Part shown: positions 25,974-26,050 of the stretch, one piece after another
Layout of the letters: each line of letters opens with the position of its first letter
Position numbering within the stretch: position 1 is the stretch's first letter
DNA from: a virus
Taxonomy: Duplodnaviria; Heunggongvirae; Uroviricota; Caudoviricetes
IMG/VR virus record: IMGVR_UViG_2563366918_000005
Length of the DNA: 42,002 nucleotides
Reading direction: 5' to 3' (one strand)
Translations under genes and position numbers: made by a program
The notes under the pieces: generated by a model
The model's database searches: none
What the model saw: the letters and a program-made list of their open reading frames with translations, nothing else
What the model was told of the DNA's origin: nothing

Positions 25974-26050
25974 GTGGCATTAGCTCAGTTGGACAGAGCA
26001 ACCGCCTTCTAAGCGGTTGGTCGCAGGTTCGAATCCTGCATGCCACGCCA
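25974..26050 (+). tRNA. tRNA-Arg (anticodon UCU), phage-borne, argU-like
   Basis: Full cloverleaf read by hand: acceptor GTGGCAT/ATGCCAC, D-arm GCTC…GAGC, anticodon arm ACCGC-CTTCTAA-GCGGT, T-arm GCAGG-TTCGAAT-CCTGC, discriminator G plus CCA. Confidence 0.9.

Follow-up and report, generated by a model that had tools for sequence, protein, structure and literature searches.

A tRNA-Arg(UCU) gene as the probable exchangeable 3' module of a conserved structured RNA unit in a phiV10/epsilon15-like prophage

Why should a temperate phage keep one tRNA gene between its portal and terminase genes? This question was raised by the IMG/VR virus record IMGVR_UViG_2563366918_000005 (Caudoviricetes), a stretch of 42,002 nt that is hereafter called the window, in which a tRNA-Arg(UCU) gene had been recognized from the sequence and regarded, in the original prediction, as phage cargo that probably supplies AGA decoding for AT-rich phage genes. 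That interpretation was partly supported by the analysis described herein. The interest of the locus, however, was found to lie in an unannotated, widespread, and covarying RNA joined to the tRNA, which also occurs in the classic model phage P1, and we consider it fairly probable that the functional argU-like tRNA constitutes the exchangeable 3' module of a self-contained early unit carrying this conserved, trans-acting RNA. The two central features are as follows.

25974-26050, plus strand: tRNA-Arg(UCU), argU-like, with CCA encoded, filling the cargo slot (ARAGORN, Rfam, argU comparison).
25733-25977, plus strand: conserved structured RNA element of about 245 nt (77 distinct homologues aligned, covariation).

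The identity of the tRNA was established on several grounds. ARAGORN called one tRNA in the whole window, a plus-strand tRNA-Arg with the anticodon TCT at 25974-26050, and the Rfam tRNA model RF00005 matched this interval with 73.3 bits against a gathering score of 29 (E = 2.6e-14). The sequence, GTGGCATTAGCTCAGTTGGACAGAGCAACCGCCTTCTAAGCGGTTGGTCGCAGGTTCGAATCCTGCATGCCACGCCA, forms a canonical 7/4/5/5 cloverleaf with an encoded CCA, and contains the identity elements for arginyl-tRNA synthetase, namely, A20 (kept in the D loop AGUUGGACA), C35, and U36. Its 7-nt anticodon loop CUUCUAA, including U33 and the anticodon UCU, is the same as that of argU from Escherichia coli K-12, with which it shares 64 of 77 positions; the two tRNAs agree throughout the T arm and the D stem, and where they differ, in the acceptor and anticodon stems, the changes are compensated. 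Furthermore, the 30 copies of the tRNA-Arg found by ARAGORN comprised nine variants, whose variation was limited to tolerated sites, i.e., the D loop (positions 16, 17, and 20a), the variable loop, the discriminator base, and the G-U-compatible acceptor positions 70/71, a pattern that indicates a working tRNA. As far as its sequence can tell, 25974-26050 is thus a genuine, functional-looking argU-like tRNA-Arg(UCU), and the full cloverleaf, the argU-type T arm, and the exact coordinates of the original prediction were all confirmed. As a tRNA, it is routine and already known, since it has been annotated in GenBank for the O157 typing phages 9 and 10, phiv142-3, SPN9TCW, SPC32H, and Klebsiella ST512-KPC3phi13.3, and argU-like tRNAs of phages are familiar.

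A tRNA gene in a prophage may also mark a host attachment site (attB) or the junction of two elements, which the original prediction had named as one of its refuting cases. tRNA genes are frequent integration sites, the sequence 3' of the present one is variable, and an IS1 lies 490 bp off. Against this, the window was revealed to be an E. coli prophage of the phiV10/epsilon15-like type (genus Uetakevirus), 97-99% identical over long stretches to phiV10, TL-2011b, PAS61, phiv142-3, and the O157 typing phages 9 and 10, and the att core of this phage group, ATTGAGTGGGAATGATT, was located at 1873-1889, so that bases 1-1872 represent host flank. Experiments have identified this core as attP and the 3' end of guaA as attB (PMC9782041), and the integrase gene is adjacent to guaA in a genome whose copy of the element is 100% identical to the 253-nt query. 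In the window, the tyrosine integrase gene (40746-42002) occupies the opposite prophage end, about 14.7 kb from the tRNA-Arg (14 kb in the original prediction), with no integrase nearer; the tRNA-Arg lies about 24 kb inside one prophage element and is accompanied by no second tRNA. Its position is the same in virion-derived genomes such as those of phiV10 and the O157 typing phages 9 and 10. The gene order, portal (minus strand), 68-aa open reading frame (ORF; minus), a gap of about 420 nt holding the element, tRNA-Arg (plus), variable ORF (plus), and TerL (minus), is kept in phages of three host genera, E. coli, Salmonella, and Klebsiella. The att core, the guaA attB, the virion genomes, and the synteny ruled out the attB or two-element reading, to which we attach practically no credence, and the tRNA is cargo, as had been proposed. 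The proposed placement in a terminase-portal island held as to location, between portal and TerL, but not as to membership: the tRNA lies on the strand opposite to these head genes and is therefore a unit of its own outside the structural operon. Neither the TerL-like ORF nor the 68-aa ORF had a match in Pfam.

The approximately 320 nt between the upstream promoter and the tRNA proved to be other than a simple leader. The first four bases of the tRNA (GTGG) are at the same time the last four of the conserved 3' end, CGTTGTGG, of the element at 25733-25977. Aligned with its distant relatives, this element consists of invariant blocks, including an invariant 19-mer, GGTAGCCGGAATGTGCAAG, at 25810-25828, and segments of variable length, and one stem has been swapped whole for different complementary strands. 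The helices assigned to it are listed below.

25734-38/25750-54, plus strand: P1.
25743-48/25820-25, plus strand: PK1.
25758-66/25807-15, plus strand: P2.
25853-56/25864-67, plus strand: P4.
25859-62/25876-79, plus strand: PK2.
25885-89/25897-901, plus strand: P5.
25905-19/25960-74, plus strand: P6.

Covariation was assessed on 77 distinct copies with a manual model that comprises 45 pairs in six helices, two of which form pseudoknots; the RNAalifold consensus was set aside in its favour, being partial, devoid of pseudoknots, and a mixture of competing helices. Five measures were compared with controls in which the 3' partners were slid and with 500 shuffles. Standard pairs were formed in 94.1% of the cells of the model against 30-46% in the slid controls, and 21 of the 45 pairs had changed on both sides (3-11 in the slid controls). 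The cells with both-sided change numbered 241 against 10-45, a count that, like the other cell counts, is inflated by close relatives within the alignment, whereas the pair counts and slid controls are less affected. None of the 500 shuffles reached any of the five measures. At position 155/175 in PK2, 43 sequences have C-G and 26 have A-U, and no sequence is unpaired; at position 28/40 in helix P1, G-C occurs in 56 and A-U in 20; and three of the four pairs of helix P4 covary. The segment 25650-26135 also folds more stably on the plus strand (-196.9 kcal/mol, z = -5.3) than on the minus strand (-175.3 kcal/mol), and the fixed G-U pairs of the element identify the plus strand as the RNA. On this comparative evidence, 25733-25977 is a conserved, strongly covarying structured non-coding RNA with two pseudoknots, and what seemed to be a leader is no plain leader, being more conserved and far more widespread than the tRNA behind it.

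In some records, such as that of mEp460 (gp37), this block is occupied by a minus-strand protein gene. It is true that 49 of the 77 copies have a stop-free minus-strand frame across the element and that a hypothetical protein has been annotated there in some GenBank records. The lengths of the copies, however, fall into all three classes modulo 3 (31/26/20), the invariant 19-mer stands in different frames in different lineages, divergent members contain stops, and the variation has no 3-base periodicity, while the compensatory pair changes and the strand-specific G-U pairs fit an RNA. In the absence of a conserved frame and of periodicity, and with indel lengths not divisible by three, a protein-coding reading on either strand was rejected as very improbable. 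The minus-strand hypothetical-protein calls over the element (mEp460 gp37 at 2443-2811; phiV10; TL-2011b) look spurious, their frame not being conserved. Public annotation, in which several records place such proteins over the element, is corrected accordingly. No model of Rfam 15 matched the element in the window at E ≤ 10, or its copies in P1, mEp460, Klebsiella, and Salmonella at E ≤ 1. The literature, searched by sequence string and by context, yielded no earlier description, although subscription journals were thinly covered and a prior account is thus possible.

The element is by no means confined to the relatives of phiV10. It was present in 1840 of 5426 complete E. coli genomes, at 1920 chromosomal places and 554 on plasmids (P1-like plasmids included), and among the 40 matches listed of 2120 RefSeq E. 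coli records, no feature was annotated under it except the neighbouring tRNA. The 19-mer GGTAGCCGGAATGTGCAAG occurred in at least 120 IMG/VR contigs and 24 GTDB species, mostly Enterobacterales, and these matches gave 129 distinct element variants. Three genomic contexts could be distinguished. In Uetakeviruses, the element lies between portal and TerL on the opposite strand, and it was found in all five whole genomes tested (E ≤ 4e-45), as compared with three of the five for the tRNA-Arg. In lambdoid phages (mEp460, the cdtI phage, and Stx2c phages), it directly follows a cI-like gene, the terminator of that gene, and two operator-like palindromes, and forms the head of the early-left transcript; a strong terminator and SfV-like early genes come next, and neither a promoter nor an N-like protein was detected for the early genes past the element. 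In P1 and P7, it is situated in the C1-controlled ban operon (Pban/Op72), right after trnI (tRNA-Ile2, CAT) and before ban, and the P1 copy retains helices P1 to P5 and lacks P6. All three contexts thus seem to place the element behind an early promoter under repressor control; for P1, such control is part of the annotation, and for the other two contexts, it is inferred.

Knock-down of P1 trnI and ban, the genes flanking the element, by CRISPR interference is tolerated in the laboratory (PMC10695390), which suggests an accessory role for the element. Clustering of the ORFs within about 4 kb of 150 element instances returned context-specific neighbours (portal/TerL, cI-like/DUF2303, P1 genes) and no shared partner. 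A full, enteric-like copy (E = 1.4e-47) is carried by vB_SmeS_BUCT708, whose recorded host is Stenotrophomonas maltophilia; either the element reaches beyond Enterobacterales or this host assignment deserves a recheck. As a separate observation, several phages have, on one side or the other of the element, further pieces resembling the 3' strand of P6 (GGAGTGCGCTTCCAG[G/T]TGTG; e.g., loci L002 at 2560-2660, L009, and L042), and nhmmer gave weak P6-like matches in P1 (980-1562) after trnT (E = 0.002-0.018); such pieces suggest tandem or recombined modules.

Comparison of the copies at their 3' boundary clarified the relation between the element and the tRNA. Among the 150 instances, 30 had a tRNA-Arg downstream and 17 a tRNA(CAT) upstream. 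In the 115 instances with a recognizable boundary, the tRNA-Arg was carried by 31, whereas 64 had in its place a multi-hairpin RNA of 94-161 nt closed by GTTGTGG...CCACAA(C), often followed by CCA; a terminator-like hairpin with a T-run, as defined by our own heuristic, occurred within 330 nt in 97. Two Klebsiella Uetakeviruses hold, between the same flanks, the tRNA-Arg in one and a 145-nt RNA in the other. In the cargo-less copy of vB_SmeS_BUCT708, which has a promoter-like site of its own (TTGACG-17-TAAATT, read by eye), the element runs straight into an ATCACG hairpin and a terminator. Since the slot has alternative and even empty fillings, the element appears to be the constant product of the unit and the tRNA its optional, exchangeable 3' module. 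One filling deserves separate mention, namely, the cargo of IMGVR_UViG_3300011501_000023. In its fold, an acceptor-like stem is accompanied by D-like and T-like hairpins, a long variable arm, and a stem of 5 bp that carries a 7-nt loop, CUUUUAA. This loop resembles the anticodon loop of tRNA-Lys (UUU), and ARAGORN calls no tRNA there; the cargo could be a tRNA-Lys mimic or a degenerate tRNA.

We then considered how far the supply of AGA decoding accounts for the presence of the tRNA. Counting of AGA and AGG codons in phage and host genes, which the original prediction had suggested as a check, gave 6.7 and 3.7 per 1000 codons in the 42 ORFs of the window, whereas the corresponding values for 17 host core genes nearby were 1.1 and 0.4; the two codons together are thus enriched about 7-fold. 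The prophage has 77 AGA and 43 AGG codons in total, almost all in the tail, tailspike, injection, lysis, and early genes. The GDSL-esterase tailspike-like ORF (3973-6579; 37.6% GC), in particular, uses 8 AGA and 8 AGG among its 35 Arg codons. The head block at 19840-30011 (TerS, TerL, portal, protease, capsid, and neighbours) contains 0 AGA and 4 AGG. Codon usage thus splits sharply within one phage, between an AGA-free head block and an AGA-bearing remainder. Among the five whole Uetakevirus genomes, the AGA frequency was 7.0 (window), 5.4 (SPN1S), and 4.7 (BUCT711) per 1000 codons with the tRNA-Arg, and 6.9 (the Salmonella phage PAT1) and 2.6 (ST11-OXA245phi3.2) without it, and no consistent link between AGA load and tRNA-Arg was observed.

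These data bear on the simplest explanation of the locus, namely, a tRNA moron preceded by a long functionless leader and carried only for AGA decoding in AT-rich phage genes. It agrees with a real, argU-like tRNA, with the enrichment of AGA/AGG and its concentration in the AT-rich tailspike and tail genes, and with the Klebsiella pair, in which the phage having the tRNA is richer in AGA (4.7 vs. 2.6 per 1000). PAT1, however, matches the AGA load of the window without the tRNA, the slot holds non-tRNA RNAs or nothing in most copies, and what was taken for a leader is an RNA with covarying pairs and pseudoknots whose conservation extends far beyond that of the tRNA. The inert-leader part of this explanation was refuted by the covariation and wide conservation of the element, and we judge the whole improbable. 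The role foreseen in the original prediction was therefore upheld as regards demand, which is real, but not as the reason for carriage, given the tRNA-less PAT1 and the absence of AGA from the head genes; AGA supply by the tRNA-Arg is plausible but dispensable.

The sequence signals around the element and the tRNA delimit a putative transcription unit as follows.

25615-25643, plus strand: putative sigma-70 promoter of the RNA/tRNA unit, with -35 TTGACA (25615-25620), a 17-nt spacer, and -10 TACCTT (25638-25643).
25637-25651, no strand assigned: operator-like palindrome TTACCTTTCAGGTAA (TTACC-N5-GGTAA), overlapping the -10 and the predicted transcription start.
25650-25722, plus strand: 5' hairpin of the transcript, resembling helix P6 (minimum free energy fold of 25650-26135; varies between lineages).
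26053-26073, plus strand: hairpin ATCACG-N9-CGTGAT, directly 3' of the tRNA.
26094-26135, plus strand: intrinsic terminator 1, with a stem at 26094-26129 (14 bp, 7 G-C pairs) and then a T-run.
26214-26237, plus strand: intrinsic terminator 2, GCCCGG-TTCG-CCGGGC (26214-26229, 6 G-C pairs) followed by T7.

The promoter-like TTGACA-17-TACCTT is located 354 bp upstream of the tRNA-Arg and has a perfect -35; the motif (TTGACC/TTGACA-17-TACCTT) and the palindrome are kept in the Klebsiella and Salmonella relatives, and a consensus scan found no other plus-strand promoter-like site between 25643 and the tRNA-Arg. With one mismatch at most, TTACC-N5-GGTAA occurs at 15 sites in the window (3659, 6684, 7064, 8105, 25637, 26254, 29933, 29951, 33410, 33472, 35394, 35731, 35779, 36491, and 36553), where 0.73 would be expected, and none of 100 shuffles reached this number. 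The sites at 35731 and 35779 lie between two divergent genes, one HTH_3 repressor-like (35849-36433) and the other a cro-like ORF, those at 36491 and 36553 at the early-left promoter, and others upstream of TerS and at the promoter of the cargo ORF (26254). The half-sites are kept in relatives and the N5 varies. We infer that the phage repressor, presumably the HTH_3 protein (35849-36433), binds these palindromes. A promoter with an overlapping operator, as had originally been proposed, is thus a reasonable assignment, and the strong terminator said to follow the tRNA was found to be two intrinsic terminators. Terminator 1 is kept in relatives with compensating stem changes, and homology to phiV10 stops at terminator 2. 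The ATCACG hairpin is retained in all Uetakevirus-type relatives whatever their cargo, as well as in the cargo-less copy of vB_SmeS_BUCT708. The 5' hairpin is weakly supported, and the Klebsiella relatives have a P6-like hairpin at the same place.

On the basis of this arrangement, we propose a unit consisting of a promoter with an overlapping operator, a 5' hairpin, an RNA of about 245 nt, a GTGG slot with an acceptor-type stem, a further hairpin, and two terminators. The phage repressor would shut the unit off in the lysogen, and early transcription, probably starting near 25650, would follow induction or infection; such control would agree with the location of the element in P1, behind the C1-controlled Pban, and in lambdoid phages, where OL-like operators immediately precede it. 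RNase P would cut at G25974, which would both mature the 5' end of the tRNA and free the structured RNA with a defined 3' end; where the slot is filled otherwise, RNase P would find the same signal in the acceptor-like stem and T-like hairpin. The tRNA-Arg would raise the decoding of AGA, and of some AGG, in the tail, tailspike, lysis, and early genes, a helpful but dispensable contribution. The freed RNA would act in trans with host factors, most likely in an accessory early function of host takeover or counter-defence, in view of the lack of a conserved neighbouring protein partner and of the flanking P1 genes being non-essential in the laboratory. Beyond this, we tentatively propose, as a serious possibility short of a probable one, that the 245-nt element is the first representative of a new class of non-coding RNAs of temperate phages. 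These would be compact, double-pseudoknotted RNAs that are expressed at once on derepression, owe their maturation to the tRNA-processing machinery by way of a swappable 3' module (tRNA or tRNA mimic), and act in trans on a host target, for instance in counter-defence or in taking over the machinery of translation or RNA decay.

The main competing explanation takes the conserved RNA for a leader that acts in cis, as a switch or as a processive antiterminator of the HK022 put type. It would allow RNA polymerase to pass the downstream terminators and transcribe the cargo ORF or early genes, and the tRNA would merely be co-transcribed. The lambdoid copies are placed where nutL/putL lie, i.e., after cI, a terminator, and OL-like operators and before a strong terminator, their early-left genes have neither a detected promoter nor an N-like protein, the P1 copy lies inside an operon just before ban, and the competing pairings CAACG/CGTTG and GTTGTGG/CCACAAC could make a switch. 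On the other hand, nhmmer with the element profile found nothing in the nun-cI-cro region of HK022 (putL, putR), and in Uetakeviruses, the two terminators are followed by nothing but a single variable ORF, itself preceded by a separate promoter, and then the convergent terminase gene. The cargo-less copy ends in a hairpin and a terminator like an ordinary small-RNA gene. An RNase P cut at the slot, if it occurs, would moreover untether the RNA from the polymerase, and put reportedly needs such a tether. We regard the cis-acting explanation as unlikely on balance, though it deserves the most attention among the alternatives. A riboswitch was also judged unlikely, as what follows the element in its various contexts (tRNA, tRNA-like RNAs, nothing, ban, and SfV-like early genes) is functionally unrelated.

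Phage tRNAs are known to escape anticodon nucleases, those of T4 and T5 acting against PrrC and PARIS. The tRNA and its tRNA-shaped alternatives might accordingly be counter-defence cargo that replaces, or serves as a decoy for, host tRNAs hit by such nucleases. The unit looks repressor-controlled and early, the slot is as highly exchangeable as anti-defence hot spots, the tRNA departs from argU in its acceptor and anticodon stems but keeps the identity elements, and the filling of IMGVR_UViG_3300011501_000023 bears the tRNA-Lys-like loop CUUUUAA. The anticodon loop of the tRNA-Arg is that of argU, however, and escape from a loop-recognizing nuclease is not obvious. The case is circumstantial, and we consider it rather doubtful as the primary explanation.

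Several observations weigh against the preferred reading of an exchangeable tRNA behind a trans-acting RNA. The proximal P6 strand CGTTG overlaps the slot-closing stem GTTGTGG, and the non-tRNA versions cannot fully form both, which could point to a conformational switch in cis rather than simple processing. In lambdoid phages, where the element opens the early-left operon ahead of a terminator and no promoter was detected further downstream, its position fits cis antitermination better than a trans function. The -10 TACCTT is weak, matching the consensus at 3 of 6 positions, and the consensus scan left this promoter uncalled. PK1 (GCACAT/ATGTGC) and the proximal P6 are invariant, so that covariation neither supports nor contradicts them. 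To these may be added the AGA load of the tRNA-less PAT1 (6.9 vs. 7.0 per 1000 in the window) and the possibility, already mentioned, that thinly covered journals hold a prior description of the element.

Conserved pseudoknotted cores usually imply a specific molecular partner, such as a ligand, a protein, the polymerase, or the ribosome. The exchangeable slot for a tRNA or tRNA mimic suggests a bacterial counterpart of mascRNA-type processing and, likewise, a phage route for swapping tRNA-shaped cargo. If the element does represent a new class of non-coding RNA, this class spans P1, lambdoid, Stx-converting, and epsilon15-like phages and about one third of the sequenced E. coli genomes.

Downstream of the second terminator, the following features were assigned.

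26243-26271, plus strand: separate promoter of the variable downstream ORF, ATGACC-17-TATAAT, with its own operator-like site at 26254-26268.
26273-27868, plus strand: variable accessory ORF, 272 aa when restored, 35-37% GC, interrupted by IS1.
26537-27304, minus strand: IS1, 768 bp, InsA/InsB, with a 9-bp target duplication TGCTGCCTA (DDE_Tnp_IS1, E = 3e-75; InsA domains).

Excision of the IS1 together with one target duplication restored a single open frame of 272 aa, having a hydrophobic N-terminus and a coiled-coil C-terminus, for which no Pfam family scored above the cut-off; relatives carry unrelated ORFs at this position, e.g., a Gp49 family protein or DUF2829. On the other side of the unit, just upstream of its promoter, a block of about 60 bp at 25555-25614, on the minus-strand side of the 68-aa ORF and portal, is nearly invariant among the E. 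coli, Klebsiella, and Salmonella phages despite their differences in cargo and holds a second AAATTATTACC; it may be the promoter/leader of the portal operon or a shared regulatory site. In the host flank, the Hfq-binding small RNA STnc490 was identified at 1687-1810 (146 bits), about 60 bp from the prophage att core, along with a glycine-zipper lipoprotein-like ORF and a DUF5384 ORF. The window also contains an immI module of the P1 type, with isrK at 7115-7191, the C4 antisense RNA at 7211-7298, and then a Bro-N antirepressor ORF at 7302-8039; the same C4/isrK pair is present in mEp460 (206-394), itself a carrier of the element, and C4-type immunity and the element co-occurred in all three phage types examined.

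When compared with known systems, the tRNA itself belongs with argU and the argU-like tRNAs of phages, such as argN/argO of the Stx phage 933W and the tRNA-Arg of T4. It has the anticodon UCU in common with all of these, as well as the plausible supply of rare AGA decoding, and it shares with argU the T arm, the D stem, A20/C35/U36, and the encoded CCA; in its annotated relatives, the tRNA-Arg takes the same genomic position as in the window. Unlike argU, it has remodelled acceptor and anticodon stems, with the 5' strand of the acceptor starting on the GTGG of the upstream element, and unlike argU-type tRNAs, it lacks a recognizable promoter of its own and would be transcribed as the 3' part of a unit that begins with 320 nt of structured RNA. 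The predicted operators recall the C1 regulon of P1 in being dispersed and promoter-proximal (a 15-bp palindrome occurring 15 times in the window, once at this unit), and the P1 copy of the element sits in the C1-controlled ban operon, but the operator sequence is different and the presumed HTH_3 repressor is unrelated to C1.

The element shares with HK022 put its lambdoid position, as an early-left leader upstream of a terminator in phages without N; it has no sequence similarity to put, is about three times larger, contains pseudoknots, and also occurs as a stand-alone gene bounded by a terminator. Like GOLLD and ROOL, the large ornate phage-associated RNAs, it is phage-borne, highly structured, and without a protein gene, and it recurs by tRNA genes. 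It is, however, much smaller (about 245 nt), matches no Rfam model including theirs, and is found in temperate phages of Enterobacterales with a defined tRNA slot. Parallels in arrangement are offered by MALAT1/mascRNA of vertebrates and the RNase P-processed C4 RNA of P1/P7, the gene for which is present in the same phages as the element. In these systems, a tRNA or tRNA-shaped structure lies directly 3' of a non-coding RNA, and RNase P cleavage would likewise set the 3' end of the element, processing being predicted here. The non-tRNA slot fillings resemble mascRNA in their acceptor-like stem and, often, a 3' CCA, whereas the tRNA of the window is no mimic but a bona fide decoding tRNA, and the P1 copy of the element differs in having its tRNA upstream rather than downstream.

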